Assembly: GCA_044451945.1 (NCBI GenBank)
Contig: JBIOKR010000004.1
Span: forward strand, 23,454 to 87,453
Source: Candidatus Lutacidiplasmatales archaeon
GTDB lineage: Archaea > Thermoplasmatota > Thermoplasmata > Lutacidiplasmatales > UBA184
Direction of reading: 5' to 3'
DNA length: 64,000 nt
Part shown: positions 535-62,261 of the stretch, one piece after another
How positions within the stretch are numbered: the first letter of the stretch is position 1
How the letters are laid out: each line of letters starts with the position of its first letter
The notes under the pieces: model-generated
Told to the model about the DNA's origin: nothing
What the model saw: the letters and a program-made list of their open reading frames with translations, nothing else
Databases searched by the model: none
Made by a program: the position numbers and the translations under genes

Positions 535-1398
535 ATGTTGCAGAAGCATCGGGGACGGGAGCCGACGGCCCGACGGGATCTTGGAGGGCGCGCGACGAGC
601 GTCCTGGCGACGATGGCTCCGGCGGTGCTCGTCGTCTGCCTTCTGTTCGTTCCCTCCGCGGCGGGCGCGAAAGCGGGCGTCATCACCAAGACCGCCCCCT
701 TCCCGGGAACCCACACCAACGTCGACGACCAGCGGGAGTACGCCGGCTGCGGGATCGCCCACAACTGGGTGAAGAGCGCCTTCCACTGGAAGACCGGGAT
801 GGGCGTGTTCTCCGAACAGGCGTCCACGAAGAGCTGCAATACCACCGCCTTTGGCTACAACGACGGCTCCGCGTACGGCGAGATGTTCAGCCGGATCCCC
901 GTGCCCGTCGCGACCAGCGGCACCTACACGGTGACCGCGAACCTCTCCTTCCGGGTCAACATGAGCGCCAGCATGGTCCTGGGACACTGCCAGCGCTCGG
1001 CCCGCAGCGGCACCTCGAGCTGCGTCGAGCTCGCCCAGGCGTACGTCTTCGCGAATGCATGGTTCGAGGATGTGAGCACGGGAAACCTGACATCGGCGCC
1101 GTCGAGCTTTGGAATCAATCTGACCTACGAGGTCTACACAGACTGCTCGAGTACCTGCAGCTACACGACCTACGGGGCGAACGGCACCAGCACGGGCACG
1201 ACCCAAGTGAGCTTCGGGTTCGGGGGCAACGCGCTCGTCTCCACCGATACCTACGCCGTCGTGCTGATGGTCTGGGGCGACGCGTGGGCCGGTCGGGTCG
1301 CGTTCTCCGGAGGGATCTCGGGGGGCTCCGAGCAGGCGTTCGTCAACATGGGAAGCGCGGGCAACGCGTTCGACGTGAAATCGATCTCCCTCACCTAG
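535..1398 (+). CDS. Secreted beta-rich protein, APYKG-family member 1 (unknown function)
   Basis: Basic n-region plus hydrophobic helix ending AAGA, then KTAPFPG, GCG...C, a C-x10-C loop and C-terminal VNMGSAGNAFDVKSISLT. A TATA-like TTTAT at 454-458 supports ATG 535; ATG 613 is an alternative. Confidence 0.75.
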   Translation: MLQKHRGREPTARRDLGGRATSVLATMAPAVLVVCLLFVPSAAGAKAGVITKTAPFPGTHTNVDDQREYAGCGIAHNWVKSAFHWKTGMGVFSEQASTKSCNTTAFGYNDGSAYGEMFSRIPVPVATSGTYTVTANLSFRVNMSASMVLGHCQRSARSGTSSCVELAQAYVFANAWFEDVSTGNLTSAPSSFGINLTYEVYTDCSSTCSYTTYGANGTSTGTTQVSFGFGGNALVSTDTYAVVLMVWGDAWAGRVAFSGGISGGSEQAFVNMGSAGNAFDVKSISLT

Positions 1399-1677
1399 GC
1401 CCGGCAGGTCGACCCGTCCGACGGTCCGGGGGACAACGGACAAGAGGGGCCCGGCAGGGAGCCTCCTTCGGGCGGAGCACGGGCCGTGGCCCTCCTCCAG
1501 ACGGGGGGGGTAGGTTCCTGGGGCCACCCATCCCATCGGGACCCGGGGTCGGCCCCGCAGGCTCGACCGGCGCTGGCGCCGGCGGGATCGACGCCATACC
1601 TCGGGAGATCACGCGAGCGGGACGCCGAGCGCCTTCGCCAGGAAGAAAAGCAGCAGCGCGGTGGGGATCGAGAGGAG

Positions 1678-2319
1678 CTACGGCAACGCGACGGCCAAGG
1701 GCCAACGGAACCAAGTGCTGCGGTGGCCGTCGTGTCGCATCGACAGCCAGGGGAGGAGGAAGATCGAGCTGTAGACGATCGTCTCGACCGGGACGAGGAT
1801 GAGCGCCTCGAGCGGCGCGCGCAGGAACAGACCCGCCCCAGCCTGCTCGAAGAGCACGCCGACCAACCCGCCCGCGAGCAGGGCCTCCTTCTCGGAGAAG
1901 GTGAACTGTCGGGCGAGATACTGTCGCCATGCGAGAAGCCAGACCGTCCACCCGGCGCACACCCAGATCAGGTCGACCCACAGAATGGGCTGGGCGAGCC
2001 GGGCCCCCGTCGCCCACGCGAACGACTCCTCCGTGCAGGTGACCGCGACGCACAGCACGACGAAGCCCGGCCACCGGTCGAACCGTAGCCGGGGCACTAG
2101 GGCAGCGAATCTCCTGCGCCCGAGATAGAAGAGACCCCCGAATCCGCCGCACCAGCCGACGCTGAAGGCGACGACTCCCCAGGACCCGGCGAGCGCGAAG
2201 ATCGCGACGCTCAGGGCGAAGCCGACGAGCAACAGCTGCCAAGCCCAGTCGAGCGTGCGGGAGCTGCCGCGTCCCGGGGGCCCAGTGGGTGCGACTCCGG
2301 GGATCGGGGGAGTCGCCAT
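1678..2319 (-). CDS. Multi-pass membrane protein, unknown function (a hydrophobic frame continues past the TAG to a TGA at 1609)
   Basis: About six hydrophobic segments, typical GC3-rich codons, ATG at 2319 (MATPPIPG). Confidence 0.7.
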   Translation of the reverse strand: MATPPIPGVAPTGPPGRGSSRTLDWAWQLLLVGFALSVAIFALAGSWGVVAFSVGWCGGFGGLFYLGRRRFAALVPRLRFDRWPGFVVLCVAVTCTEESFAWATGARLAQPILWVDLIWVCAGWTVWLLAWRQYLARQFTFSEKEALLAGGLVGVLFEQAGAGLFLRAPLEALILVPVETIVYSSIFLLPWLSMRHDGHRSTWFRWPLAVALP

Positions 2320-2375
2320 GGATGGCCGGACGCAGCGAGCTCCTCGGACGGCCCGACCGGGGTTCCGCTCGTTGA

Positions 2376-3206: not shown

Positions 3207-3374
3207 GCCTTGTCTGGTCTCGGGCAGCGGAGAAGCGTTCGCCTGCATAAGGAGGAGCGGGGAGACCGCGGTCGGTCGAGGCGGGGGATCCGCCTTGATT
3301 GCGCGGGGGCAGGTCGGGGCCGCCGGTAGGGGAGCGCCTTTTATCGTGTCAGCCCCGATGGCCGTCCGATTCCG

Positions 3375-4412
3375 GTGGCCCACGACAGAGCGCTCCGAGT
3401 TCGAAGGCCCGGCGCCCCGGACCTCTCCTCCGCCGACACCCCGGCGCAGTGGGTCGGGGTCGACCTCGGAGGGACCAAGGTCGCCACCGGGCTCGTCGAC
3501 CCGAGGGGAACTCTCACCGGTGAAGCGCGCCGGCTCGTCCACGCCGCCAAAGGGCCTCCCACCGTCCTACGCCACGTGGTCGCCGCCGCGAGGGAGAGCG
3601 TTCGGAGTGCGCGGTCTCCCCCGATGGGGGTGGGCGTCGGGGTCGCCGGGCAGGTGCATCGGGCGACGGGCACGGTGATGTACGCGCCGAATCTCAAGTG
3701 GAAAGACTTCCCCTTGGGGGCGAAGCTCTCCGAGGCGCTGGGGCTGCCGGTCGCCGTCTCCAACGACGTCGTCGCCGTGGCGTGGGGGGAGTGGCTGCAC
3801 GGCGCGGGCGTCGGTTCGAACGATATCGTCTGCGTCTTCGTCGGCACCGGCATCGGCGGTGGGGTGGTGAGCGGCGGGCGAATGCTCGAAGGAGCGTCCA
3901 GCGCCGCAGGGGAGGTCGGCCACACGGCCCTGGTCGCCGGGGGCCGACGCTGTCACTGCCCGAACTCCGGATGTCTCGAGGCGTACGCGGGAGGGTGGGC
4001 GATCTCCGAGCGGGCGCGCGAGGCGGCTCTCGACGACCCTCGTCGTGGGGCGCCGTTGGTTCGGGCCGCCGGCTCCGTGTCGGCGATCAGCCCGGCGACC
4101 GTCATCGCGCTGCACCGCAACGGCGACCCGATGGCCACGACGATCTATCGCGACACCGCACGCTATCTATCCGATGGCATGGTGGGTATCGTGAACGCAT
4201 TCAACCCCGACCGGCTCATCCTCGGCGGCGGGGTCCTTGACGGCTGGCCCGAGCTCCTGCCCGAGGTGCGGCGCGCCGTGAGGTCGCGGTGCCAGCCGCC
4301 GGCCGCCCGCGCGGTCCACGTGCTCCCCGCCGCGCTCGGCAAGGAGGCCGGGGTCGTAGGCTCCGCCGCGATGGCGCGGGCCACCCTCTCCACGTTGGGG
4401 GGTCGGCGATGA
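3375..4412 (+). CDS. glk: ROK-family sugar kinase (glucokinase)
   Basis: [44 protein letters not shown] zinc motif. TTTTATCG lies ~30 nt upstream of the GTG. Confidence 0.9.
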
Positions 4413-6433
4413 GCGCGGTGGACGACCTGTCGGTCGGAACGCTCCGGTTCCTGAGCGTCGATATGGTCGAGGCGGCGAGATCCGGGCACCCGGGTCTTCC
4501 GCTCGGGGCGGCCCCGATGGCCTACGTCCTGTGGGACCGGCACCTTCGCCACAATCCGGCCAACCCAAAGTGGCCGAACCGGGACCGGTTCCTGCTGTCG
4601 GCCGGCCACGGTTCCGCGCTCCTCTACTCGCTGCTCCACACGACCGGCTACGACCTTGCGCTCGATGAACTGCGACATTTCCGACAGTGGGGAAGCCGGA
4701 CGCCGGGCCATCCGGAAGCGGGCCACACCCCCGGGGTCGAGGCGACCACCGGCCCGCTGGGCCAAGGGTTCGCGATGGGGGTCGGCATGGCGATCGCGGA
4801 ACGATTCCTCGCCAACACGTTCAACCGGGAGGGCCACGATCTGATCGACCATCGGACGTTCGCGCTGGTCTCCGACGGCGACCTCATGGAGGGGATCGCC
4901 TCCGAGGCGGCCTCGCTCGCCGGCCGCATCGGGCTCGGCAAGCTGACCTACCTCTACGACGACAACCATGTCTCCCTCGAGGGCGGTACGGAGCTCGCCT
5001 TCACCGAGGACGTGGGCAAGCGGTTCGCCTCCTACGGCTGGCGCGTTCAGCATGTCGCCGACGGGAACGACCTCGAAGCGATCGATGCGGCGCTAAGCAC
5101 CGCGATCGTCTCCAACGGGCAGCCGAACCTGATCATCGTCCGCACCCACATCGGCTACGGGAGCCCCCGACAGGATACGAAGGACGCCCACGGCGAACCG
5201 CTCGGCCCGGACGGGGTCCGCGCGACGAAGGAGAAGCTCGGATGGCCTCTCTCCCCGACGTTCCTCGTACCGGAGGCCGCGGGCCAGCATCTCGGTGAGT
5301 CGCTCGGACGCGGTGCAAAATGGGAGGCGGATTGGAACGCACGGCGCGACGAGTACGCCCGAAAGTTCCCCGACTTCGGCCAGAAGCTTACGGAGGCGCT
5401 CTCGGGCACGCTGCCGACCGGTTGGGCCGAGGGTCTTCCGGCGTATGACCCGAAATCGGGCGACGTCGCCACGCGCGACGCCGGGACGGCGATGATCAAC
5501 GAGATATCGCGGCGGATCCCGACCTTTCTCGGCGGATCGGCGGACCTGAACCCGTCGACCCGGACCTACCTGACGGGAGGCGGGGAGATGGGCCTCGATG
5601 GCGGCTCCGGCAAGAACGTTCACTTCGGGGTCCGAGAGCACGCGATGATGGCGATCGTCAACGGGATGGCGATGCACGGCGGCGTCCTTGCGTTCGGGGC
5701 GACGTTCTTCGTCTTCTCCGACTACGCCCGGCCGGCGATCCGTCTCGGCGCGCTGATGCGATCGAAGAGCCTCTACGTCTTCACCCACGACTCCGTGGCC
5801 CTCGGGGAGGACGGCCCCACCCATCAGCCGGTGGAGCAGCTCTGGAGCCTGCGGGCGATTCCCGGACTCACGGTCCTGCGCCCGGCCGACGCCAACGAGA
5901 CGGTTGCCGCCTGGCGGCTCGCGCTCGAACGGCCGGGCCCCGCCGCCATCGTGCTCACGCGCCAGAAGCTCCCGGTGCTTGACCCGGCCGCCTACCCGGT
6001 CGCCGAGGGGGTATCGCAGGGAGGCTACACGCTCTCGGAAGCGGGGGAGGGGCCGGTCGCGCTCATCTTCATCGCGACCGGTTCCGAGGTCTCCCTGGCG
6101 CTCGCCGCCCAACGCACGCTCGCCGAGCGTGGGGTCAGGACCCGCGTCGTCTCCATGCCGTCGGTCGAGGTGTTCAGTGAGCAGGGCGCCCAGTACAGGG
6201 AGCGCGTTCTTCCGCCCGGGGTCCCGAAGCTGGCCGTCGAAGCCGGCTCACCGGTCGGCTGGTGGCGCTTTGTCGGGGAGTCCGGTGGGGTGATCGGTAT
6301 CGAGCGGTTCGGGGCGTCCGCCCCCGGTCCGGTCGTCCTCGACCGGTTGGGCTTCAACGTCCCGCATGTCGTGGAGACCGCCCTCGCCCTCCTCCCGCCG
6401 GAACAGCGGGGCACCTCCTCCACGGCGCGGTAG
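4409..6433 (+). CDS. tkt: Transketolase (single-chain bacterial type)
   Basis: [22 protein letters not shown] ThDP motif, [28 protein letters not shown] overlap with glk. Confidence 0.97.
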
Positions 6434-6437
6434 CCCG

Positions 6438-8108
6438 ATGAGCGCTCGAATACCGGACCAGGGCCTCGCCGCACGCATCGAGGACCGGCTCGCGATTTGG
6501 CAGGCGAGCTCCTTCGCGCCGCGACTGTGGGCGAAGGACCCGACGCTCTGGTCGGCGACGCCGATGCCCGAGGTAACCGACCGGCTCGGATGGCTCGACC
6601 TCCCGATGTCGATGGCCTCCGAGGTCGGGAGCCTGTCGGGGTTCGCCGCCGAGCTACGGGATTCGGGCGTCCAGGACGTCGTGGTCCTCGGCATGGGCGG
6701 CTCGAGCCTCGCGCCGACGGTCTTTGCCCGCGTGTTCGGCTCCTCCGAACGATTCCCCCGGCTCACGGTCCTCGACACCACGCATCCCGACGCGATCGGC
6801 GAGGTGCGCCGGCGGCTCGACCTGGCCCATGCGGCGTTCGTCGTTTCGAGCAAGTCCGGAACAACGACCGAGACGCTGTCGCTGTTCGCGTACTTCTGGA
6901 AGGAGATCGAGTCGGAGGGTGCCGCGGCACCGGGAGCCCAGTTCGTGGCGATCACCGATCCGGGCACGCCGCTCGCCGAGCTCGCCCGAAAGCGCGGCTT
7001 CCGAAAGCTGTTTGAGGCGAACCCGAACGTCGGGGGCCGCTACTCGGCCCTGACCCACTTCGGGCTCGTGCCGGCCGCGATGATCGGCGTCGACGTCGAC
7101 CGCCTGCTCGGATGCGCCCGCGCCATGGCGGCCCGGTGTGGGGCCGGGGTGAAGGCGGCGGAGAACCCCGGCCTCGAACTCGGGGCGCTCCTCGGGGAGG
7201 CCGGCGTGTCGGGTCGCGACAAGGTGACGTTCCTGACCTCACCGCCGCTCTCCGGCTTCCCTGTCTGGATCGAGCAGCTGATCGCCGAGAGCACCGGGAA
7301 GGACGGCAAGGGGCTCGTCCCGGTCGCCGGCGAGCCCCTCCGGCCCCCGCCGACCTTCGGGGTGGACCGCGTCACGATCGGATACTCCGGCCCAGAGGGC
7401 AAGAAGGTGCCCCCGACTCCCCGGGGCCCCACCGATGCGGCGCCCCCCGGCTGGTCCGAGGAGCTCTCCGACGTCTACGAGCTAGGCGGGGAGTTCTTTC
7501 GTTGGGAGGTCGCCGTCGCCAGCGCCGGGGCGATCTTGGGGATCCACCCGTTCAACCAACCGGACGTACAGCTCGCCAAGGACCTGGCCCGTCGGGAGAT
7601 CGCGAGCCCGGCAGCCTCTCCGAGCGCCGGCGCTTCGGCCCCCGCGACGATGACTCCCGGAGACCTTGCGACGGCGCTCGGAGCGTTCTTCTCCGGAACG
7701 CGCCCGGGGGAGTACCTGGGGATCCATGCGTACCTCGCCCCGGACGCTGCGACGGACTCCGCCCTCTCCCAGTTGCGCATCGACCTTTCCGAGCGGACCC
7801 GGTTGCCGGTGACCCTCGGGTACGGGCCGCGCTTCCTCCACTCCACCGGCCAGCTCCACAAGGGCGGACCGCCGACCGGCCGGTTCCTCCAATTCGTCGA
7901 CACTCCCCGTCAGGACCTCCCGATCCCCGGGGAGGCGTTCACGTTCGGCCAGCTCATCGCCGCACAGTCCCGCGGCGACAAGGAGGCGCTTTCCCAGCGG
8001 GGCCGCACGGTACTCACGCTTCCCCTCGGAGGCGAACCCCTCCGAGCGATCGGCGGCGTCGGGGCGGCGGTCCGGGGAGCCGCCCGGCAACCCGGGGGCC
8101 GGCGCTAA
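6438..8108 (+). CDS. pgi: Glucose-6-phosphate isomerase (resembles the PGI module of Tal-Pgi fusions)
   Basis: GMGGSSL, SKSGTTTE, VGGRYSAL, EQLIAESTGK, HPFNQPDV, HSTGQLHKGGP. Confidence 0.88.
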   Translation: MSARIPDQGLAARIEDRLAIWQASSFAPRLWAKDPTLWSATPMPEVTDRLGWLDLPMSMASEVGSLSGFAAELRDSGVQDVVVLGMGGSSLAPTVFARVFGSSERFPRLTVLDTTHPDAIGEVRRRLDLAHAAFVVSSKSGTTTETLSLFAYFWKEIESEGAAAPGAQFVAITDPGTPLAELARKRGFRKLFEANPNVGGRYSALTHFGLVPAAMIGVDVDRLLGCARAMAARCGAGVKAAENPGLELGALLGEAGVSGRDKVTFLTSPPLSGFPVWIEQLIAESTGKDGKGLVPVAGEPLRPPPTFGVDRVTIGYSGPEGKKVPPTPRGPTDAAPPGWSEELSDVYELGGEFFRWEVAVASAGAILGIHPFNQPDVQLAKDLARREIASPAASPSAGASAPATMTPGDLATALGAFFSGTRPGEYLGIHAYLAPDAATDSALSQLRIDLSERTRLPVTLGYGPRFLHSTGQLHKGGPPTGRFLQFVDTPRQDLPIPGEAFTFGQLIAAQSRGDKEALSQRGRTVLTLPLGGEPLRAIGGVGAAVRGAARQPGGRR

Positions 8109-8155
8109 GCCTCGCCACGGCTCGGGGCGTCGGGCGGAGCGGGAGAGAGGGAGCG

Positions 8156-9070
8156 ATGGAGCTCGGGATCATTGGCCTAGGGAAGATGGGCGGCAACATG
8201 GCCGAACGGCTTGCGAAGGGCGGGCACCGCGTCGTCGGTTACGCCCGGCACCCCGACGCGGTCCAAGCCGTCGTGGCCCGGGGCTGCGAAGGTGCCTCCT
8301 CGCTCGAGGAGCTCGTCCGGAAGCTCCGAGCCCCGCGGGTCCTCTGGCTCATGATCCCGCAGGGGCCACCGGTCGACGACACGCTCCATGAGCTCCTCCC
8401 GCTGCTCGCCCGCGGGGATACGGTGGTCGACGGGGGGAACTCGTTCTACAAGGACAGCGTCCGGAGGGCGGGAGAGCTCGCACCGTCCGGGATCGGCTAC
8501 GTCGACTGCGGAACGAGCGGAGGCATCTGGGGCCTCTCCGGGGGCTACAGCCTGATGATCGGCGGGGACCCCGCGGTCGTCGAGCGCCTTCGTCCGCTGT
8601 TCGAGACGCTCGCTCCGGCCCCCGACAAGGGATGGGGCCGAGTCGGCCCGGTCGGTTCCGGCCATTTCACCAAGATGGTCCACAACGGCATCGAGTACGG
8701 CCTCATGCAGGCGTATGCCGAGGGGTTCGACGTGCTCCACCACAAGGCAGAGTTCGCCCTCGACCTCGCCCAGATCTCCGAGATCTGGCGCTACGGAAGC
8801 GTCGTGCGCTCCTGGCTGCTCGACCTGACCGCCTCCGCGCTCTCGGAGGACGCCACGCTCGCCGGCGTCCGACCGTACGTCGTGGACTCGGGGGAGGGAC
8901 GGTGGACCCTTCTCGAGGCGATCGACCTCGGCGTGCCGACGCCCGTTCTTGCGGACTCGCTCATCGAGCGCCTGCGTTCCCGGGAGACCGAGGATTCGTT
9001 CGCGGACAAGCTTCTCGCCGTGATGCGGGCGAAGTTCGGCGGCCACGCGATCCTCAAGGAAGGGGGATGA
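8156..9070 (+). CDS. gnd: 6-phosphogluconate dehydrogenase, decarboxylating (short YqeC-like type)
   Basis: GIIGLGKMG Rossmann motif, DGGNS, DCGTSGG, KMVHNGIEYG, DSGEGRW, FGGH. Confidence 0.95.
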   Translation: MELGIIGLGKMGGNMAERLAKGGHRVVGYARHPDAVQAVVARGCEGASSLEELVRKLRAPRVLWLMIPQGPPVDDTLHELLPLLARGDTVVDGGNSFYKDSVRRAGELAPSGIGYVDCGTSGGIWGLSGGYSLMIGGDPAVVERLRPLFETLAPAPDKGWGRVGPVGSGHFTKMVHNGIEYGLMQAYAEGFDVLHHKAEFALDLAQISEIWRYGSVVRSWLLDLTASALSEDATLAGVRPYVVDSGEGRWTLLEAIDLGVPTPVLADSLIERLRSRETEDSFADKLLAVMRAKFGGHAILKEGG

Positions 9071-12241: not shown

Positions 12242-12244
12242 GGG

Positions 12245-43053: not shown

Positions 43054-43054
43054 T

Positions 43055-43933
43055 TCAACTGACGATGATCGAACGGAGGATAGCTCCGCGTCCCAGGGTG
43101 GCGAAGTTGAGCTCGGCGTGCCCGATCCCGCCTCCCAGGAGCGTCGCGTGCAGGGTGCGGAACTCCGATTCGGCGGCCCCCGAGAGGGTCATGATGAGCC
43201 AGTAGTGGTCGGTCGAGACCACGCCGGTGACGTTGAACCAATTGGCGATGGTCTGGTCGACGCGGGTGGTTCCGGGGTTCGAGCTCGAGTAATTGAAGAA
43301 GACGCTGGTGTGCTCGTTCTCGGCGATCGACGCGTTCGATACCCCGACCCAAAAGTTCGTGGGATAGCTCGTCGCGCCACTCGTGGCATCGTAGAGGGTT
43401 GCGTACTCATCGAGGTAGGACTGGACGACCTGCAGGCAGTAGGATATCGTCGCCGACAGGTTCAGCACGCAGGTTCCGAGGCGGGCGGTGGCCTTCAGCG
43501 TGGCGTTGAAGTGCCAGTTCGCGACGACGCTGTGCGACCCGTTACCCGAGAAGCTGATCGGCACCATTACGATGAGCGACGACTGCGCGGAGACCGCGTT
43601 GTCGCCGGGCAAGGAGCATCTCGCCGTTGCGGCCACGTCCGAGAACCCGGCGGTCCCGTTCTTCTGCAGGAAAAAGGGTAGCTTCGTGACCTTGCCTTTC
43701 GCGCAGCCGGCCAAGCTCAATCCGTAGGCGCGATCGGTGTGTGTGTGCTTGTACGGCGCCGTCAGGGTGACCGAGGCGGGTTGGGCGGCGTAGGCGAGTT
43801 GAGTGAGCGAGAGGATCAAGGCGACTCCCATGCTGGTGGCGCCGGCGAGCCCCGACGCGGCGCGGCTGTGCGGCAACCGTCGTCCCCGCGAATGGCCCCT
43901 CCCGCGATAGGTAGCGGGTCGTGCGGCGAACAT
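43055..43933 (-). CDS. Secreted beta-rich protein, APYKG-family member 2
   Basis: Basic n-region, signal ending AYA, TLTAPYKH, GCA...C, C-x10-C loop, LNFATLGRGAILRSIIVS*. TATATA at 43997-44002. Confidence 0.78.
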   Translation of the reverse strand: MFAARPATYRGRGHSRGRRLPHSRAASGLAGATSMGVALILSLTQLAYAAQPASVTLTAPYKHTHTDRAYGLSLAGCAKGKVTKLPFFLQKNGTAGFSDVAATARCSLPGDNAVSAQSSLIVMVPISFSGNGSHSVVANWHFNATLKATARLGTCVLNLSATISYCLQVVQSYLDEYATLYDATSGATSYPTNFWVGVSNASIAENEHTSVFFNYSSSNPGTTRVDQTIANWFNVTGVVSTDHYWLIMTLSGAAESEFRTLHATLLGGGIGHAELNFATLGRGAILRSIIVS

Positions 43934-46210: not shown

Positions 46211-46548
46211 GAACTCCCGGAAGCCTCGCAGGCCGGAGACCGAGGGGCAAGATAATGACGCCGGAGCCGCCGGTGGCTTGCCCGAAGCGACGCGCCCTTT
46301 TCGAGCCGGTTTCTTGTCTCGCGAGAGCTCTCCGGTTGAGCCTTCATACTCCACCGACGGAATCGTTCGAATGACGGTGTTTACGGTGATGCCGTGGCCG
46401 TTCCGTTCGGGTCTCGGAAGTTCTATTACCCATGGCCCAGATGGGCGAGCCTCCCGTTGGTGCGACGGCCTAATGGGCTTCGCCCTCGGAAGACAAAAAG
46501 GGGATGGATAAAGTGGACCTTGGGAAGAGAACGTTTTTGGGACGTGGC

Positions 46549-47445
46549 ATGAAAAGCGTGACGTTGGGAGCGGGGGCGGTCGGTATCGCACTCATCATGC
46601 TGCTATCTCCGATGGCCGGCGCAAGCGCGCCCCGCGTGGGGTTCAAGGGCGCCGTCTATCAGGTCTCCCTCAGCCAGAGCAACTCGGGCTGCGGGACGAT
46701 CAAGGCGAGCTACCCGACATGGTCGGCGCTTACCGGCGCGGCACACTGGAAGTCGAGTGCGGTTTCCAAGAGCTGCTCTAGCGTCTACGGCACCGTCGGC
46801 TCGAGCTCCGCGGCTTCGTCGAGCGGGTCGATCGAGGTCGCCGCCCCGGTGAAGATGGTCTCGGGCGTCGGCGGCGTCAACGTCAGCTGGGCACTCGCCG
46901 TCGCCTGGGCCGTCGCCGCGAAGGTCGGCCCCTCCGGGGTCTGCCCCGGCTATTCCTACAACTACAGCTACTACTACTCGTACTACAACAGCTGGATCAA
47001 CTACAGCGACAGCTACTCGTACTGCTCGGTCGACGCCTCCCTCTCGATCAGCGCGTCCGTCTACCTCGTCGATCTCTCGACGAGCGCGACCTACTACCCG
47101 TCGAACTACTGGTCCGGGCTCAACAAGGGCTTCGACACCTACAACGACACCTCGACGACGGTGGAGACCTGGTCCAACTCGTCGTACTGGCAGAACAACT
47201 ACACCTCCTGGTACACGAACGGCTACCGCAGCGGCTCGACCGGCTCGGGAACCCTGGGCGCTTCGAGCTCTCCCCAGTTCTTCATCAACGGGACGTTCGT
47301 CGGGACCGACAAGTACGCGATCATCGCGACCTTCAGTGCGTACACCAACTCGAATGTCAACGGCATGAAGAAGTCCATGGCGTCCGCGATGGTGGACTTC
47401 GCGAGCACGGGACTAGGGGCCGACCTACAGGCGGTCGTCTGGTAA
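46549..47445 (+). CDS. Secreted beta-rich protein, APYKG-family member 3
   Basis: Signal ending MAGA, VGFKGA, SGCG...C, Tyr-rich C-x26-C loop, [18 protein letters not shown]. Confidence 0.78.
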
Positions 47446-51386: not shown

Positions 51387-52283
51387 TCACGAGACCGTGA
51401 TCGAGTGGATGAAGATCCCCTGACCGAGCTTGGCCATCTCGTCACTGATGCTGGCGGAAACTGAGATCCAACGGGCGTTCGTGCTCGACACCAGGAGATT
51501 CGTGGTCCATAGAAAGCTCAGATCGAACAGGTATTGGTGCTTCGTGGTCGTAGTAGGAATCTGGAAGGTCAGAAGCCAGTACGAGTTCGTCGGGTAGCTC
51601 GTTTGTGTCGGGAGCGCCCCGGAGGAACCGCAGGTGTTGGTCGATCCGAAGGAGGCCGGGGCGCAGCCCGTGACGTTCTCCCACGACATCCCCCAGGTCT
51701 CGCCGAGTACGCCCAGCTTGCCCGGGCTGGTGAAGTTGGACCACCGAGCCCGATGGTTCGTCGCGGTCGTGCTGTCGTAGAGGCTCGCTTGGAATATGAT
51801 GAACAGCCACGACATCTTGAGGGCGCATTGGGAGGTCACCCCGGTCGTGTTGGAGTAACGGCAGGCGCCGAGCTTGGCGTGGACCAGGATGTCCCAGATC
51901 AGCGATGCGTTCACAACGACGGAGGTCGCCGATTGAGGAGCAGGGATCTGGATCTGCAGGACAAGGGTCGCCGGGTTGTCGTTGTGGACGCCGTTACAGG
52001 AACCGCCACAACGGGGGAACACCGCTTTCGCGCTGTACCCGCCGTACCCCGAGCTTCCATGGAAGAACGGCGTGGTGTTGGTGAGGCTGCCGGTGCCCGA
52101 GTTGTTCACGGAGTCCTTCCCCGCATCCTTCACCATCTTGAAGGGCGGACGATGGACCGCGGATGCCGAGCCAGCTCCTGCACCGCTCGAGATCACAACC
52201 ATCGCGCAAAGGAGCGCTGGCGCTAACGAGACGATCCGAATTACGAGCGTGGTCTTCTTCCGGGCGAAAGCGGCTGCGGTCAC
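51387..52283 (-). CDS. Secreted beta-rich protein, divergent APYKG-family member 4
   Basis: Signal ending ASA, RPPFKM, C-x11-C loop, second C-x10-C loop, EMAKLGQGIFIHSITVS*. Confidence 0.7.
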   Translation of the reverse strand: MTAAAFARKKTTLVIRIVSLAPALLCAMVVISSGAGAGSASAVHRPPFKMVKDAGKDSVNNSGTGSLTNTTPFFHGSSGYGGYSAKAVFPRCGGSCNGVHNDNPATLVLQIQIPAPQSATSVVVNASLIWDILVHAKLGACRYSNTTGVTSQCALKMSWLFIIFQASLYDSTTATNHRARWSNFTSPGKLGVLGETWGMSWENVTGCAPASFGSTNTCGSSGALPTQTSYPTNSYWLLTFQIPTTTTKHQYLFDLSFLWTTNLLVSSTNARWISVSASISDEMAKLGQGIFIHSITVS

Positions 52284-54643: not shown

Positions 54644-56284
54644 GTGGTAGCATTCGACAACAAGACGATGCGACACGACCGTCCCCCTTATCGGGGCCGG
54701 AATCACGTCAGGGGAATTCGGAGGTTCCCAAGATCCATGGGGGCGACGACGATGGATGGGATCATTCCGACGGCCCAGCGACCGGCCGAATCCCTTACGC
54801 GCGGTGCCCCCCCGATTGAGCTCCCCTCGGGGCGGCGCAGGGGATTCCGGCGACGCCGCGGCTTTTCCCCCGGTGTTACCACCGGGATCGGCATCGCGAT
54901 CCTCGTGCTGGTTGTGCCCACCACGGGCGTGCTCGCGGTCCACGCGGGCTCGATCCCTGCCTCGCACAAGGCGTTCACCCAGCAGCAACTGTTCAACCGG
55001 CACATCAAGCACATCGTCATCATCATGATGGAGAACCACGGCTACGACAACTACTTCGGTGTGTACTGTCAGCAGGTCGGCAAGTACTGCCCGAACACCA
55101 CCGCCGGGATCCCCTCCGGGACATGCGTACCGCTCTACCCGAACGTGACCAACTCGACGTGCGCCGTCCCGTACAACTACACGAGGGCCAACATGACCAT
55201 CACCTCCCCGATGATGCACGGCGAGGTCCCCTCGATCTCCGCTTGGAACAACGGTTCGATGAACAACTTCTATCTCGCCGAGCATTCGGGGCTCGACCCG
55301 TTCGGACACTACAACGGGAGCACGGCCCCACTGTACTGGGACCTCGCCCAGGAGTACGCACTCGGCGACCACTTCTTCTCCTCGAGCCTCTCCTACTCGC
55401 TCGCGAACCACTGGTTCATCATCGCCGGGACCGCGCCTCCGGAGTCGGTCAACTCGACGCTCATCAAGACCGCGGACAAGAAGGTCTACCTGCGCCAAGC
55501 GAACAACACGACCAGCGCGGAGGACCTCCTCTTGGGCCGCTCGGGCGTCACGTGGCGGTACTACGACTATGGCCTATCGAGCTGGACGGCCGCCCAGGCC
55601 GCCCAGATCGGCATCGGTATCCCGAGCCGAGGGGCGTACAACTACTGGAACCCCCAGGCCGCCAAGTACGAATCGTACACCCCGAAGCTCGACTACCACT
55701 TCGTTCCGAACACCCGCTTCTTCGCCGACGCCCTCAACGGGACCCTCCCGAACATCTCGTGGGTGATGCCGTACGCCCGGGACTCTGACCACCCGCCCGA
55801 GAACGTCACGCGCGCCGAGGCGTGGGTCTCCACCGCGATCGACTCGGTCGAGGCCTCCCCGGAGTGGAACACGACGGCCGTCTTCCTCTCCTGGGACGAT
55901 TACGGCGGCTGGTGGGACAACATGGCTCCTCCGGTTCTTTTCGGCACGCAGATGTCCTTCCGTGTGCCGCTGATCGTCATCAGCCCGTACACCCCGGCGG
56001 GGCTGGTGGTCAAAACGACCGCCGCGTTCTCCTCGCTGCTCAGCCTCGTCGAGGCCCGCTACGGCCTCGGCTGCCTTTCCGTCCTCGACTGCTTCTCCGC
56101 CCCACCGCTCGATTACTTCAACTTCAGCATGCACCCGAGGGCTCCCATCCTATTCCCCACCCTGGTGAAGAAGCTGACCTATCCGGCGACCCTGGCACCG
56201 GCAGCCCCCGGCATGCTCAACGCATGGCGGGCCCCGGTCAACTTCACGAACGACCCGAATGGGAACGGCCCGGACGTCGACTGA
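54644..56284 (+). CDS. Secreted phospholipase C/acid phosphatase (phosphoesterase family), paralogue of 44099-46210
   Basis: IMMENHGYDNYFG, SYSLANHW, SDHPP, SWDDYGGWWDN, FRVPLIVISPY. RRRGF before the hydrophobic helix. Start uncertain (54644, 54737 or 54752). Confidence 0.88.
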   Translation: MVAFDNKTMRHDRPPYRGRNHVRGIRRFPRSMGATTMDGIIPTAQRPAESLTRGAPPIELPSGRRRGFRRRRGFSPGVTTGIGIAILVLVVPTTGVLAVHAGSIPASHKAFTQQQLFNRHIKHIVIIMMENHGYDNYFGVYCQQVGKYCPNTTAGIPSGTCVPLYPNVTNSTCAVPYNYTRANMTITSPMMHGEVPSISAWNNGSMNNFYLAEHSGLDPFGHYNGSTAPLYWDLAQEYALGDHFFSSSLSYSLANHWFIIAGTAPPESVNSTLIKTADKKVYLRQANNTTSAEDLLLGRSGVTWRYYDYGLSSWTAAQAAQIGIGIPSRGAYNYWNPQAAKYESYTPKLDYHFVPNTRFFADALNGTLPNISWVMPYARDSDHPPENVTRAEAWVSTAIDSVEASPEWNTTAVFLSWDDYGGWWDNMAPPVLFGTQMSFRVPLIVISPYTPAGLVVKTTAAFSSLLSLVEARYGLGCLSVLDCFSAPPLDYFNFSMHPRAPILFPTLVKKLTYPATLAPAAPGMLNAWRAPVNFTNDPNGNGPDVD

Positions 56285-56629: not shown

Positions 56630-57436
56630 CTAGATCACCTTTTCCTGCACCAGCGTGGCACCCTCGCCACCGGTGGCCATGTTGACCGTCGCCGTCGCCG
56701 TGCTCGATCCCGCATTCAGGACCGTCGTGGTCACCGCGATCTCGATCCCGACGATCCACGCGTAGGTGTCCCCCGAGCCGAGGGTCGTGTTCGCGTAGAG
56801 CGTGAAGATGTGGGAGGTCACCAGGTAGGTGAACGTCCGGTTCACGTTGTAGCTCGAGCTCGAGTTGTAGAAGCTCGTCCCGTACTTCGCGTACGTGTTC
56901 CCCGTCACGTTCCACAGGTTTCCGCCGACCCACACCTGGACCGTCGTCGCCGTGTATTGCGACTTGTTGCCCAGGAAGTTGTTCAGGGTCAAGGCGTAGC
57001 TCGCCTTGAACTGGGCCGAGATCGTGTGGTAGCCGGTCGAGGTCATCGTCCAGGCGCCGCCGATCATTCCGGCCTGGTCCGTTGCCGAGGCGCTGGTGTA
57101 CGACGGGAACCCGTAGAGACCGCAGACCTTCGAGGTCGCGGTCGCGGACTCGACGAGCTTGCCCGTCGACAACGTGAACAGCCCGACCTTCGTGAGGGCC
57201 GCCGTCCCACCGCAGCCGCTGGTCGACAACGAGTTCGGGCCGCCCGTGACGCTCCCCTTGTACGGTGCCTTGATGACGATCGCCTTGAAACCGGCCGAGC
57301 CGAGCGGGGCGAGGACCATGAGAAGGGTCACCGCCGCCGTGGCGCCTACAGCGGTCAATCCCGCCGCGCCGCTCCACGAGCCACGTCGGGCTCGATAGCC
57401 GAATTCGGGTCGAGTCGCTCCACTCCCATCGTTCAT
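56630..57436 (-). CDS. Secreted beta-rich protein, APYKG-family member 5
   Basis: Signal ending LGSA, IKAPYKG, GCG...C, VNMATGGEGATLVQEKVI*. Confidence 0.85.
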   Translation of the reverse strand: MNDGSGATRPEFGYRARRGSWSGAAGLTAVGATAAVTLLMVLAPLGSAGFKAIVIKAPYKGSVTGGPNSLSTSGCGGTAALTKVGLFTLSTGKLVESATATSKVCGLYGFPSYTSASATDQAGMIGGAWTMTSTGYHTISAQFKASYALTLNNFLGNKSQYTATTVQVWVGGNLWNVTGNTYAKYGTSFYNSSSSYNVNRTFTYLVTSHIFTLYANTTLGSGDTYAWIVGIEIAVTTTVLNAGSSTATATVNMATGGEGATLVQEKVI

Positions 57437-57448
57437 GCCTTGTGTTCC

Positions 57449-57517
57449 CCCGTCTCAGGAGACGGCTCCTTCCGGAGACGCCCTGAGTGCAGGCGGGGGA
57501 CGATGACCCTGTTATAT
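57449..57517 (-). promoter_or_regulatory. TATA-like element plus leader palindrome CCGTCTC-AG-GAGACGG upstream of member 5 (repeated at +1,170 for member 6)
   Basis: TTATAT at 57512-57517 and an inverted repeat close to the start codon, both conserved in the duplicate. Confidence 0.5.
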
Positions 57518-57799
57518 GAAACCGGAGGGCGAAGCCGGAGGTTTCCCCTCGAAAATGCTTCTATCGCCGCCGGCGCGACGACTCGGGGTCAGTGGACCGA
57601 GGAAAGGGAATAGGGCCCGGGCTCGGAGGGCTGACATCGGTCGTCGGAGAGGCGGGACGACGACCCGATACGCGACGTGGAGACTCGAGGGAGCGCACGC
57701 AAAAGGAGAGAGGGAAAAGGTTGGACGGCCCCGACCTCGGGATGAGGTCAATGGTCGACCCACAGCGGGCGCCGCCCACTGAAGGCCTGGCCGCAGTCC

Positions 57800-58606
57800 T
57801 TAAATCACCTTTTCTTGCACCAACGTGGCCGATTGGCCGCTCGTTGCCATGTTGACGGTCGCCGTCGACGTGCTCGACCCCGAGTTTAGCACCTGGGTGG
57901 AGACCGAGATTGAGATGCCGGTGATCCACTCGTAGGTGATCCCGTTGTAGAGGGTCGTGTTGGCGTAGATGGTGTAGATGTGCGACGTGACGGGGTAGGT
58001 GAAGGTCCGGTTGTTGTTGTAGCTGTAGCTCGTGTTCGAGAACGAGGTTCCGTACGCGGCCCACTTGTTGCCCGTGACGTTCCACAGCTCGCCGGTGATG
58101 TAGAGCTGGACGGAGGTGTAGACGTACTGGGACTTGTTCCCGAGGAAGTTGTTCAACGTGAACGTGTAGGTCGTCTTCCACTGGGCGGAGTTCGTGTGGT
58201 AGCCGGTGGAGCTCATCGTCCAAGCGCCGCCGATCATTCCCGCCTGGTCCGTTGCCGAGGCGGTGGTGTACGTCGGGAAGCCGTAGAGGCCGCAGACCTT
58301 CGAGGTCGCGGTCGCGGACTCAAGGAGCTTTCCGGTCGAGAGCGTGAACGCGCCGACCTTCGAGAGGGCGGCCGTGCCGCCGCACCCGTTGGTCGCAAGC
58401 GAGTTAGGGCCGCCGTAGACGGTCCCCTTGTACGGTGCCTTGATGACGATCGCCTTGAACCCGGCCGAGCCGAGCGGGGCGAGGACCATCAGTAGGGTCA
58501 CCGCGGTCGCGGCACCGATGGCGGTGTATCCCGCCATGCCGCTCAACGAGCCACGCCGGGCTCGGTAGCCGAATTCGGGTCGAGTCGTTCCACTCCCATC
58601 GTTCAT
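57800..58606 (-). CDS. Secreted beta-rich protein, APYKG-family member 6 (tandem duplicate of member 5)
   Basis: Same 268-aa length, 55 substitutions by manual alignment (~79% identity). Confidence 0.85.
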   Translation of the reverse strand: MNDGSGTTRPEFGYRARRGSLSGMAGYTAIGAATAVTLLMVLAPLGSAGFKAIVIKAPYKGTVYGGPNSLATNGCGGTAALSKVGAFTLSTGKLLESATATSKVCGLYGFPTYTTASATDQAGMIGGAWTMSSTGYHTNSAQWKTTYTFTLNNFLGNKSQYVYTSVQLYITGELWNVTGNKWAAYGTSFSNTSYSYNNNRTFTYPVTSHIYTIYANTTLYNGITYEWITGISISVSTQVLNSGSSTSTATVNMATSGQSATLVQEKVI

Positions 58607-58820
58607 GCCTTGGTTTCTCCCGTCTCAGGAGACGCCCCCTTGCGAAGGCGCCCCGAGTGCGGGGGGGGGACGATTCTAGTGTTATATGACTTCGGGGGCG
58701 GCCGCCGGAGGACCCCTCATCGAGGATGCAATGCCATGGCACGGCGCATGGGCCCCCGTCCTGGATCGGCCCTCCGAAGGGAAGGCGGGAAATGGTTGGG
58801 GCGGCCGATCAGGGACTCGC

Positions 58821-59690
58821 CTACTGGATCACCACGTAGTTGAGAGTCGCGCCGTTACCCAGCGTGTCGAAGTTGAGGCTCGCCGAGGCGCTCGCACCCG
58901 TGAGCACGCCGTTGTACGCATCCGCCTCGGCCCAGGTCCCTCCGGAGATGTCGAACTCCAGAGTGTACTGGTCAGAGGCGTTCATCGTCTGCGTGAAGTT
59001 GAAGCTCCAGGTGGTCGAGCTCGAGAACGAGTTGCTCGCCGTCGGGGTCTGGTAGTAAGTGCAGTTCGCGTACGAGCAGACGGTCTCGTTGTAGGTGTCG
59101 TTGAAGACGCCCGGCCACGGGTTGTTCGGGAAGAAATACGACCCGTTGGTCTGGTCGATCAGGTAGCCGGAGGCCGAGACATAGCTCTCGCCGAACGCCT
59201 GGCAGAAGGCGTACGAGGCGAGCACGTTCGTCGCGCACTTGCCGGCGTGATAGCTGTCGGTGCCGGCGACGTTGAACGTCCAGTTGGAGAAGATGGTCCG
59301 GAGGCCCCCGATCGAGCTCAGCGGGAAGACGATCGCGAACTCCCCGGTCGCCATGCCGCGGTTGGCCGTGTTGGCGGGCAGACCCTTGCAGGTCGGCGCC
59401 TTCGATAGCTCGCTGAAGCCGCCCTTACCGGTGAGCTTCGAGAACTTCGTGAGGACAACGTTCTTGTCCGTCCCGCAGGCGACCTGACCGTTCGTGTTCC
59501 ACGTCCCGAGGGTCGCCTTCTTGTACGGCGCCTTGATCGTGATCGCGTGCGTGGCAGCGCCGAACGAGGCCGGCGCCATCGCCATGACCGCCACGACGAC
59601 AAAGACCCCGCTCGCCGCCATCGCTCCGGCTCCCCACCGGCTCCGTCGCTTTCCCGATAGTCCCAGCTCCCTGACGCTCGATGCCTGCAT
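58821..59690 (-). CDS. Secreted beta-rich protein, APYKG-family member 7
   Basis: TIKAPYKK, ACG...C, C-x10-C, C-x4-C, LNFDTLGNGATLNYVVIQ*. Confidence 0.85.
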   Translation of the reverse strand: MQASSVRELGLSGKRRSRWGAGAMAASGVFVVVAVMAMAPASFGAATHAITIKAPYKKATLGTWNTNGQVACGTDKNVVLTKFSKLTGKGGFSELSKAPTCKGLPANTANRGMATGEFAIVFPLSSIGGLRTIFSNWTFNVAGTDSYHAGKCATNVLASYAFCQAFGESYVSASGYLIDQTNGSYFFPNNPWPGVFNDTYNETVCSYANCTYYQTPTASNSFSSSTTWSFNFTQTMNASDQYTLEFDISGGTWAEADAYNGVLTGASASASLNFDTLGNGATLNYVVIQ

Positions 59691-59887
59691 CCGATGTTCA
59701 CTCCCCCCCGGCCGCGTAGGCGGAGACCGCCTGCGGGCCGAAAGCCGTCAGGCACCGACCCACGGGTATTTAGTCTGTCATGGAGCGCCAATGCGATTTC
59801 GGGCGACCCCGTCCGTCGTGGAGATGAGGGAAGAGGTTGGTGGCGGGGAGGTCCCCTTCAGGGACAACCCCGCCCGGATCCGTGGAC

Positions 59888-60967
59888 CTACGCCAGGGTG
59901 ATTGAGGTCAACTTTACCCCGTTGCCGAGTGTCGCGTGGTTCATCGACGCGCTAGCGCTCGCGTGGTTCCAGCCCTGTACCTCGGCGAGGATGATGTCGA
60001 ACGAGTACAGGAACACCTCGAAGTGGTGCGCGAGGTTGTACGACTGGTTGAACCACATCGTCGAGCTGCTCGAGCCGCTGCTCGAGAGCGTCGTGTTGGT
60101 CCCGAGGAGCCCGTTCTGGTACGACTCGGTGAGCGTTGTGACGTTGTAGCTGTAGCAGACCGTGCCCGTCGAGTTGTACCACGTCCCATAGTCCCACTCC
60201 GTGTAGCTGTAGCAGTACCAGTAGGTCTCGTTGTACGTCTCCACGAAGGAATCCACTGGGATGCTGAACTGGTACGTCGAAACGCCCGTGTTCAGGTCGG
60301 TGATCCACGCCTCGAGCTCCGAGATGATCTCAGCGCCCGCGATGCAGAACGAGCTCGCCCCGAAGTCCGTGTAGTTGTAGAAGAACGTCGAGTTCGTGTA
60401 GTTGACCGGGCCCGCGATGTTCGGGGAGTACGACCAGCTCGCGCCGTTGTAGTACTCGGCGAAGTTGTACGCGAACTGCTGGAGCGCGTCCGTGCAGTTC
60501 GGGTTTGCCGGGGCCGTCTCCTTGACGATGCCGGCCCAGGTCTCCGTCACGGAGACCGAGACGTTCCCCGTCGCGCCGGCGACCGGGAAGTGCACCGGGA
60601 TGGCCACGTTGAACCCGCCTTCGACCGCATTGTCCGAGGTCTGGCCGACGCCGCCGGAGCCCGCGCCGCAGGTCTTGGCCGATGCCGAGCCACTGCCGCC
60701 GCCCGCGCCGCTCTTGAGCGAAAAGGCGTACTTGTGAATGACCTTCGCGGTTCCGCATCCGTCCAAGAAGAGGTCCGTGAACGGCGTCACGGCCCCCTTG
60801 TACGGTGCCTTGATGGTCACGATGCCAGCGTGCGCGGCCAACCCCATCGGCGCGAACGCCATCACCGCGGCCACCGAGAGCACCAGCGTCGCGAGACCCA
60901 CTGTCCCGCGAACACCACGACGTCCCCCGGCGCTCGCTGTTCCCACTCTCTCTCCCGCTTCTCCCAT
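59888..60967 (-). CDS. Secreted beta-rich protein, APYKG-family member 8
   Basis: TIKAPYKG, GCG...C, C-x49-C, C-x18-C, MNHATLGNGVKLTSITLA*. ATG 60967 has an upstream GGGGGGAGG and a TATA-like element at 61039-61047. Confidence 0.85.
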   Translation of the reverse strand: MGEAGERVGTASAGGRRGVRGTVGLATLVLSVAAVMAFAPMGLAAHAGIVTIKAPYKGAVTPFTDLFLDGCGTAKVIHKYAFSLKSGAGGGSGSASAKTCGAGSGGVGQTSDNAVEGGFNVAIPVHFPVAGATGNVSVSVTETWAGIVKETAPANPNCTDALQQFAYNFAEYYNGASWSYSPNIAGPVNYTNSTFFYNYTDFGASSFCIAGAEIISELEAWITDLNTGVSTYQFSIPVDSFVETYNETYWYCYSYTEWDYGTWYNSTGTVCYSYNVTTLTESYQNGLLGTNTTLSSSGSSSSTMWFNQSYNLAHHFEVFLYSFDIILAEVQGWNHASASASMNHATLGNGVKLTSITLA

Positions 60968-61166
60968 GCTGTGTTTTTCCTCCCCCCGCCGCCGACGGCC
61001 CTCCGCCGGTGTCGGAGCGCCGCACAATCGCCTTTCTGATATTAAAACCCCGAGGATTTCGGTCCAGAACGCCGGGGGAGGGCCGCACCGGTGCGGCGAG
61101 GCTTGCACCCCTTGGGGGCCATCGGCAAGGGCGGACTTGGGGGGCGATCGGCGCCCTCGGCTCCCC

Positions 61167-62261
61167 CTACGTCACGGTGATCGATTGAACGGTCAGCCCG
61201 TTGCCGAGGGTCGCCATGTTGAAGGAGCCGACCGCCGACCCGCGGTTCCAGCCGACCGTGTAACAGTCCAGGAAGACGTACGGGAGTAGCCAGAAGACCC
61301 AGTTGCGACTGGCCGTTCCGTTGGCGAGCGCCCACATCGTGAGCGTCGAGCGGCCCGAGAACGTCAACGTCGAGTTGGTCCCCGTGGTCCGCGTGAGGTA
61401 GTCGTACGAAGCGGAGTTGATCGTCGAGTTGTAGTTGTTGCAGGTGACCGTGGAGTTCGACCAGCTCCCGTAGGACCAGAGCGTATAGTTGTGGCAGATC
61501 CAATCGGTCGAGTTCTGCGTGGAGACGTAGGCGTCCGCGAAGTTGACGATGCCGGGGTTCATCGAGGCGGAAGCGGTGCCGGAGGTATCGACCATCACCT
61601 CCTGCATGTAGGCGTTGATCGCGCTCCAGGATTGGCAACCGTTCGACTGCGCCCCGTAGCTGTGGTAGTAGTAGAAGTAGGTCTGATTGGTGTAAGCGAT
61701 CGGACCGCTCAACGACGGGTAGTACGACCAGCTGCTCCCATTGTAGTAGGAGCCGCTGGTGGAGTTGGTCGGGAACGATGGGCAGACGCCGTTGGTCGTG
61801 CCGTTCCGCTCCAGAATCGTGGCGCTCCAGTTGAGCCTCACCGAGGCGGTGACGTTATGGATGCCGACCGGAACCTTCACCGCGATCGAGATGATGGCAC
61901 CCGTGGTCGCCGTCCCACGGCCATAATCGCCGAGGCGGTACTGGTTCATCGGGCACGCTTTCGCCGAGACGGTGGTGAATGCCCCTCCGACCCCGGAGTG
62001 GAAGTTGAAATGCCAAGGCTTGACCTGCGTGGCTTTGGCGCAGGTGTACGTCTGAAGGCTTGCGGACGGGACGATCCCCCCCTTGTAGGGAGCGTGGAGC
62101 GTCGTGGAAGGTACGCTGCCCGAGGCGATGGGTGCCAAGAGTAGTACGCTCGTCACCACAATGAGGCTGGCCGTGCCGGAGAGCATGCTCCTCTTCGGCG
62201 GACCACGTCGCCCGACCCTTCGAACCTCCCCCGACGCCATCTTCCCTGCCCGACGCATCAT
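61167..62261 (-). CDS. Secreted beta-rich protein, APYKG-family member 9
   Basis: LHAPYKG, C...C, C-x48-C, C-x17-C, FNMATLGNGLTVQSITVT*. The start may be 62240. Confidence 0.85.
   Translation of the reverse strand: MMRRAGKMASGEVRRVGRRGPPKRSMLSGTASLIVVTSVLLLAPIASGSVPSTTLHAPYKGGIVPSASLQTYTCAKATQVKPWHFNFHSGVGGAFTTVSAKACPMNQYRLGDYGRGTATTGAIISIAVKVPVGIHNVTASVRLNWSATILERNGTTNGVCPSFPTNSTSGSYYNGSSWSYYPSLSGPIAYTNQTYFYYYHSYGAQSNGCQSWSAINAYMQEVMVDTSGTASASMNPGIVNFADAYVSTQNSTDWICHNYTLWSYGSWSNSTVTCNNYNSTINSASYDYLTRTTGTNSTLTFSGRSTLTMWALANGTASRNWVFWLLPYVFLDCYTVGWNRGSAVGSFNMATLGNGLTVQSITVT

Follow-up and report, generated by a model that had tools for sequence, protein, structure and literature searches.

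Analysis of a 64,000-nucleotide stretch of the genome of a Candidatus Lutacidiplasmatales archaeon (assembly GCA_044451945.1, contig JBIOKR010000004.1, positions 23,454-87,453; this whole stretch is hereafter called the window) reveals nine genes for predicted secreted proteins that are homologous over their full length and form one real family. The genes are numbered g1 to g9 in window order and residue positions are given in g7 numbering. All nine open reading frames (ORFs) translate without internal stops, and their GC content at third codon positions (GC3), 0.78-0.90, lies in the range expected for real genes in DNA of 65-70% GC, the value found for the window. In an all-versus-all BLASTP comparison the nine proteins form a single network with E values down to 1e-23, the identities being 79% for g5/g6, 34% for g8/g9 and 20-30% for the others; the most divergent member, g4, is weak by pairwise BLAST alone. 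A family HMM (hidden Markov model) built from 77 sequences and run against all six-frame ORFs of the window scores all nine genes at E values between 4e-29 and 3e-90, the matches covering HMM positions 7-283. Apart from family members, no six-frame ORF of the window or of a fetched locus has an E value below 0.4, so that the window holds exactly nine members and the family boundary is sharp. The first-pass annotation, made from the letters of the DNA, had already placed nine genes with a shared scaffold at these positions, and the clean translation together with the HMM matches bears this out. Nine genes in 64 kb, eight of them inside 19 kb, give the density of the family in the window (Table 1).

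The range of the family became apparent from an exhaustive profile search covering 1.84 billion representative proteins, in which 826 clusters (at 50% identity) were recovered at E<=1e-3 and 510 at E<=1e-10; the clusters inspected all have the same architecture. Word-indexed homologue searches gave just 1 and 2 foreign matches, and locus scans with the narrow motif LNF-x-x-x-GNG gave three loci in GTDB genomes and four in a metagenome collection. Every name given by the sources to a homologue is "hypothetical protein". Where the organism is named, the clusters come from metagenome-assembled genomes (MAGs) of Thermoplasmata, and the related loci, numbered with an L below, belong to soil MAGs labelled 'Thermoplasmata archaeon' or 'Methanobacteriota archaeon', with 60-69% GC and resembling Lutacidiplasmatales; Lutacidiplasma itself is an archaeon of forest soil whose genome measures about 2.1 Mb and has about 69% GC (PMC9287336). 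No sequencing run that contains the genes of the window was found. Pfam returned no match for the nine genes at E<=1 nor for the 77 members at E<=10, NCBIfam and PHROGs returned none to the family, and the family profile run against all PDB sequences found two chance matches only (E 0.076 and 1.3). To judge from these searches, the family is absent from public family resources and hence undescribed there. The first-pass annotation had likewise not recognised it, and no confident match to a characterised family emerged from the four resources.

Table 1. Positions of the family genes, of neighbouring genes and of the variable loop sites. Genes are given in window coordinates unless another locus is named; loop sites are in g7 residue numbering, and insertions are relative to g7.
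Feature	Position	Strand	Description
g1	535..1398	+	287 aa; APFPG variant; family HMM E 1.4e-69 over HMM positions 7-282
g2	43055..43933	-	292 aa; family HMM E 1.3e-72
g3	46549..47445	+	298 aa; short n-region; VGFKG; 28-residue Tyr/Ser-rich stapled loop; HMM E 2.6e-62
g4	51387..52283	-	298 aa; GTG start; PPFK; lacks first Cys; HMM E 2.6e-47
g5	56630..57436	-	268 aa; short member; lacks Cys pairs 2 and 3
g6	57800..58606	-	recent duplicate of g5; lacks Cys pairs 2 and 3
g7	58821..59690	-	289 aa; nearest family consensus; modelled; HMM E 2.7e-90
g8	59888..60967	-	359 aa; long member; 51-residue stapled loop
g9	61167..62261	-	364 aa; long member; 50-residue stapled loop; modelled
Regions with TATA-like octamers (examples)	57437-57520; 58607-58690; 59691-59775; 60968-61050		upstream of g5-g8
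Double winged-helix regulator (HTH_24 / AsnC-type)	62363..63484	+	divergent from g9; Pfam matches
PF04185 phosphoesterase	44099-46591	-	between g2 and g3; also has fn3 domain
PF04185 phosphoesterase	54644-56284	+	adjoins g5
Candidate main cell-surface glycoproteins	18219-27049	-	two overlapping genes; proteins of ~1,450-1,500 aa
Kelch beta-propeller	47900-49957	-	685 aa; signal-like N-terminal segment
Pentose-phosphate gene cluster	3330-11300	+	co-oriented genes
Three tandem genes of locus L014	11022-14721	+	401, 324 and 426 aa
Loop C152-C163	insertions after residue 156		3-80 residues, median 13; Tyr 12% vs 6.5% in overall mature protein; rich in Ser, Asn, Thr and sequons
Loop site	184-194		9-47 residues
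Loop site	214-219		0-26 residues
Hairpin C205-C210	205-210		2-18 residues

Sequence conservation was followed across 163 family members. Near the predicted mature N-terminus they carry a turn of the form A/P-P-Y/F-x-G, conserved to 67-88% per position, and A/P-P-Y/F is present in eight of the nine window genes, g3 being the exception. The AP[YF]KG motif of the first-pass annotation was well placed, about nine residues after the predicted cleavage site; the strict form APYKG occurs in four of the nine (g5, g6, g8 and g9; g7 has APYKK). Three cysteine pairs are recognised in the family, C72-C101, C152-C163 and C205-C210, the first of which is conserved to 96-98% and is found in eight window genes (all but g4), in line with the early pair previously noted in most of them. 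The longest conserved block is the C-terminal N-x-A-T-x-G-N-G-x-x-L-x-S-I-x-V, and in 149 of 161 members the chain stops nine residues past the second Gly of GNG; a common C-terminal strand reaching the stop codon had been correctly described. Between the termini, C152, C163 and D179-x-T-N-G are near-invariant, and W192 (66%), N201-x-T-x-C205, C210, N233-x-T235 and Y242 are further conserved positions. The proteins have 5-12 sequons each, two of which, at N201 and N233, are conserved. The mean frequency of the top residue is 0.48 in the C-terminal block, 0.41 in the N-terminal one and 0.35-0.38 in the middle. The idea of conserved termini enclosing a variable middle is therefore only partly right: the termini are modestly more conserved, but the middle is itself constrained by C152, C163, D179-x-T-N-G, the two sequons and Y242. 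From these patterns we infer disulfide formation and N-glycosylation of the family proteins.

D179 is the sole near-invariant polar residue, the other conserved positions being Cys, Gly, Pro, aromatic residues and the Asn and Thr of sequons. No catalytic-looking constellation of residues is seen among the conserved positions, which suggests a non-enzymatic character. Two kinds of enzyme were considered and rejected: a glycoside-hydrolase-type enzyme, because there is no conserved carboxylate pair and D179 alone is conserved, and a lytic polysaccharide monooxygenase (LPMO), because a His near the predicted cleavage site is present in some members only and the residues before it do not put it at position +1.

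In order to describe the export signal, the region upstream of the turn was profiled in 98 family sequences anchored on the APY motif. The profile shows, in this order, an Arg-rich n-region, a Gly/Ala/Thr spacer and an L/V/A core of about 9-10 residues; relative to APY there follow Pro at -15 to -13, Ala/Gly at -12 to -9 and Pro at -7/-6, with A/G at the -3/-1-like positions of the putative cleavage site. This corresponds to a Sec/signal-peptidase-I layout with predicted cleavage about nine residues before APY, and cleavage of the nine proteins by signal peptidase I is likely. A signal of the archaeal type IV pilin kind (class III) was rejected, given that the profile has the class I layout, in which the core is followed by Pro, A/G-x-A/G and a beta domain. 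The hydropathy of the signal segment over 19 residues is 1.6-2.55, which leaves room for an uncleaved signal anchor. Beyond residue 60 the highest 19-residue Kyte-Doolittle mean is at most 1.49 in the nine proteins, and none of them has a second hydrophobic segment, a lipobox Cys or a C-terminal sorting tail. The description of the proteins as unanchored is upheld by these absences but hinges on the predicted cleavage of the signal. The long basic n-region reported earlier is similarly present in eight of the nine genes, whereas that of g3 is just two residues long. An RR pair precedes the hydrophobic core by 5-12 residues in six of the nine, without the F-L-K context of twin-arginine translocation (Tat) signals.

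GGAGG-like purine runs are located 5-12 nt ahead of the proposed start codons, and further upstream are TATA-like AT-rich octamers, at a distance of about 80-85 nt from the start codon in g5-g8 and of about 70 nt in g2 and g9; the spacers within the g5-g9 array measure 197-363 bp. The start-proximal GGAGG runs together with the octamers support the view that the long n-regions are translated and that the genes of the array have separate promoters. As read from these elements, g2 and g5-g9 would each have a promoter of their own and give transcripts with a leader and a ribosome-binding site.

Two members were modelled with AlphaFold2, g7 with the 77-sequence alignment and g9 with 82 sequences. 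The g7 model is all-beta, with strands of 9-20 residues, a mean predicted local distance difference test score (pLDDT) of 89.8 (about 98 over residues 51-289) and a predicted template modelling score (pTM) of 0.80; the N-terminal hydrophobic helix has a pLDDT below 62. The g9 model has a lower mean pLDDT (79.1) and the same scaffold as g7 at pLDDT above 90; its first insert of 44 residues is ill-defined (pLDDT 52-59) and the second extends a hairpin to strands of 27-29 residues. The common fold anticipated for the family thus appears in both models as one scaffold. Comparison of the N-terminal with the C-terminal half by hhalign gave no indication of an internal duplication (probability 0.2), and in a mean-field direct coupling analysis (DCA) of 163 sequences (effective number 157) gap columns dominate and no usable topology emerges.

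Foldseek searches of the PDB with the two models place Bd1399 of Bdellovibrio bacteriovorus (8OKH) at the top for both, with E values of 6e-6 and 2e-4 and a probability of 1.0. Superposition of Bd1399 with the models gives template modelling (TM) scores of just 0.21-0.37; the match at E 6e-6 has a TM of 0.24 when normalised to the query and 0.35 when normalised to the target, with a root-mean-square deviation above 10 A. Bd1399, a secreted protein of the DUF4360 family (PF14273) with function unknown, is an elongated beta-sandwich locked by disulfides (PMC10792529); no functional study of DUF4360 was found in the literature. According to the models, the proteins described here are likewise secreted, elongated two-sheet beta-sandwiches with conserved disulfides, and both have a disulfide linking the loop that follows the first long strand with a strand some 30-37 residues further on (PMC10792529). 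On the other hand, none of the 77 members matches PF14273 at E<=10, and the archaeal proteins are larger (220-315 mature residues vs. about 165) and have in addition a third disulfide, conserved sequons, large loop insertions and the APYxG and GNG+9 termini. The other PDB matches are viral jelly rolls, carbohydrate-binding modules (CBMs), tailspikes and, for g9, pore formers, all with TM<=0.2, and those in BFVD are uncharacterised phage proteins and fibre-like proteins with TM<=0.36. The lists include CBM16 (2zex) and 2c26 among the PDB entries. With CBMs and with phage fibre-tip and viral jelly rolls the family has in common a beta-sandwich, conserved core strands and variable, aromatic-rich loops, but TM does not exceed 0.36, identity is below 15% and no motif is common to them, so that this is an analogy only. 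The family belongs to a known general type, that of secreted disulfide-locked beta-sandwich paralogue families, and is not demonstrably a new system.

Length variation within the family is concentrated at a few hairpin tips, the most variable being the loop stapled by C152-C163 (Table 1). By strand parity, the three disulfides and two of the variable tips should lie at one end of the sandwich, a placement that is not relied upon here.

In a maximum-likelihood tree of 163 members, the nearest neighbour of every window paralogue except g5/g6 comes from another genome. The relatives of g7 in L001, L002 and L003 are 37-39% identical to it by BLASTP (40% in the best tblastn segments), and in L007 the closest tree neighbour of g7 is followed by g5/6-like genes in the order seen in the window. 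Arrays of members are also found elsewhere, with at least five in L007, three in L004 and two each in L005 and L015. Purifying selection acts on the g5/g6 pair, whose ratio of nonsynonymous to synonymous substitution rates (dN/dS) is 0.32 overall and 0.26-0.35 in each segment. The synonymous divergence (dS) between the two is 0.25-0.30 in codons 1-130 vs. 0.75 in codons 131-268, a step that suggests gene conversion of the 5' half after duplication. The foreign nearest neighbours and the g5/g6 dN/dS of about 0.3 indicate old, maintained paralogues rather than a fast-diversifying repertoire; a repertoire under diversifying selection was rejected on the values of this one young pair, in which no segment departs from that range.

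The members recur amid genes for other exported or surface proteins. In the window, secreted phosphoesterases of family PF04185 (phospholipase C / acid phosphatase) adjoin members twice, g2 lying directly downstream of one of them on the same strand; elsewhere a PF04185 gene directly follows a member on the same strand in L001 and L002, and in L014 one is found four genes downstream of a member. The two overlapping genes at 18219-27049 encode proteins with a signal peptide, about 50 sequons each, InlB-B-repeat/BNR domains, a C-terminal membrane anchor and a Pro-rich tail, and are candidates for the main cell-surface glycoproteins; in L001, L002 and L003 the g7-like gene is flanked by homologues of these two, with identities of 34-50%. 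Acid proteases are encoded near members in L015. The double winged-helix regulator has a 50%-identical homologue divergent from a member in L011/L013, and a like gene is divergent from the family member P0159 in L015, from which we infer an association of this regulator with the family. No gene for a signal peptidase, a sortase-like enzyme or a chaperone was found near any member in the loci inspected. A homologue of the Kelch beta-propeller, 31% identical, is encoded near members in L005/L006. The tandem genes of L014 lie between a family member and the PF04185 gene, match neither Pfam nor the family HMM, and may represent another undescribed secreted family. Elsewhere in the window, the co-oriented cluster at 3330-11300 (ROK kinase, transketolase, PGI-like protein, glucose-6-phosphate dehydrogenase and 6-phosphogluconolactonase) constitutes a bacterial-type oxidative pentose-phosphate set in an archaeon, and other window genes encode deoxyhypusine synthase, an 'archaeal' ATPase domain, a sulfite-oxidase-type molybdoenzyme and a ComA-like protein.

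The interpretation that we favour, tentatively and at somewhat less than even chances, is that the nine proteins are glycoproteins of the cell surface without enzymatic activity, which serve for binding or as a coat and are built on one rigid, elongated, fixed scaffold. Each protein would be exported by Sec, cut by signal peptidase I about nine residues ahead of the APYxG turn, locked outside the cell by up to three disulfides (C72-C101, C152-C163 and C205-C210) and N-glycosylated at its sequons, including the two conserved in the family. The hairpin tips, rich in Tyr, Ser, Asn and Trp, disulfide-stapled and tolerant of insertions, would be the working surfaces and would bind ligands outside the cell, for instance polysaccharide, organic matter of the soil, mineral surfaces or other cells. 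The old, distinct subfamilies would provide different fixed specificities rather than a rapidly varying set, and the separate promoters, together with the conserved divergent winged-helix regulator, would permit their differential expression. The proteins might be kept at the surface by an uncleaved signal anchor, or else might dock non-covalently, either onto the glycocalyx or onto the large anchored glycoproteins encoded nearby. Of the two explanations put forward in the first-pass annotation, a binder repertoire on a fixed beta-sandwich is the one that fits best, with one scaffold in two models and length variation concentrated in a few hairpin tips, except that the repertoire is not a fast-diversifying one.

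Several points weigh against this interpretation. The structural kinship to binding-type beta-sandwiches is only an analogy, as the matches are weak (TM<=0.37). The variable loops may not all lie on one face, the 184-194 loop being probably at the pole opposite to the stapled tips, and the conserved turn motifs could be purely structural. Moreover, an unanchored secreted protein with no mechanism of assembly would be lost to the soil, and the retention proposed above is a guess.

An alternative that we consider unlikely is that the proteins build up an extracellular filament, sheath or lattice in the manner of the TasA superfamily, joining without the help of a chaperone through strand complementation or through edge-to-edge augmentation of their sheets, the paralogues being major and minor subunits. 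The TasA superfamily (B. subtilis TasA, Pyrobaculum AbpA, the Sulfolobus 0406 thread and Pyrodictium CanA/CanX) has in common with the present family a Sec/SPase-I-type signal without an anchor, a jelly-roll-type beta-sandwich with loop sequons, several paralogues per genome and the absence of a chaperone gene (PMC12518558; see also PMC9715654), and in the cannula and thread subunits there is, as here, no dedicated peptidase nearby (PMC12518558). Assembly would also suit the positionally fixed C-terminus and the C-terminal hairpin as the most conserved block, and a hetero-oligomer would fit the order of ancient paralogues kept in different genomes; in the low-power DCA, residue 51 of the N-terminal strand is weakly coupled to residue 286 of the C-terminal strand. 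However, no member matches PF12389 (77 members, E<=10), no PDB chain is matched by sequence, and no chain of TasA, AbpA, the thread or CanA is among the best 50 of the 914 and 695 Foldseek PDB matches of the two models. The N-terminal extension is much shorter than in the TasA superfamily: about nine residues precede APYxG, with a strand of 3-5 residues (50-52 in g7) as against 11-20 in the strands of the scaffold, whereas the donor segment of CanA has 19 residues (PMC12518558). The monomer model is complete at a pLDDT of about 98 including both terminal strands, with residues 51-60 within the fold, and the genes do not make up one operon but are scattered among genes for hydrolases. Disulfides are not known to be a feature of TasA-superfamily subunits. 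A filament formed by strand complementation, the second explanation of the first-pass annotation, thus gains no positive support: sequence or profile similarity, a fold match among the best 50 and a long free N-terminal strand are all missing.

The neighbourhood of the PF04185 genes raises another possibility, which appears quite improbable, namely that the family proteins assist secreted hydrolases, especially these phosphoesterases, as accessory or targeting partners, binding the substrate or stabilising the enzyme in the scavenging of phosphate in acid soil. The phosphoesterase adjoins a member or lies no more than four genes downstream twice in the window and in L001, L002 and L014, and since the proteins of L001/L002 are only about 26% identical to the window copies, the adjacency is not mere inherited synteny of one orthologue. 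Nevertheless, six of the nine members in the window have no adjoining phosphoesterase, nor is there one in L003, L005, L007, L012 or L015, and the link may just reflect a shared 'secretome island'. Finally, that the proteins are secreted beta-pore-forming or otherwise antagonistic agents against competitors is highly improbable: the long beta-hairpins, the anchorless secretion and the haemolysin-type and MACPF chains drawn by the g9 model in Foldseek would suit this role, but these matches have probabilities of at most 0.33 and TM<=0.16, no amphipathic pre-stem hairpin with alternating Gly/Ser/Thr is seen, the three disulfides staple exactly the hairpins that would need to unfold, and no immunity gene is evident. 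The remaining probability is assigned to an unforeseen function.

A farther-reaching proposal, which we regard as unlikely, is that Lutacidiplasmatales-like archaea have in this family their main outer coat or an extracellular polymer, in place of a classical S-layer (surface layer) or pilus. The ancient paralogues would in that case assemble without a chaperone into a disulfide-locked, glycan-shielded structure, docked on the two membrane-anchored glycoproteins of about 1,450-1,500 residues whose genes stand beside the g7-like relatives in L001, L002 and L003.

Thermoplasmata of the Lutacidiplasmatales type are common inhabitants of acid soils, and none of them has been brought into culture. 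The family accounts for much of the secretome predicted for the window and comprises hundreds of metagenome clusters. Its scaffold, predicted with unusual confidence despite a shallow alignment, is of practical interest, having very few charged residues, a predicted disulfide lock and loop insertions of 3-80 residues. Whether the proteins turn out to form a coat, a filament or a set of binders, the answer would throw light on the contacts of these archaea with soil organic matter, sources of phosphate and neighbouring cells.

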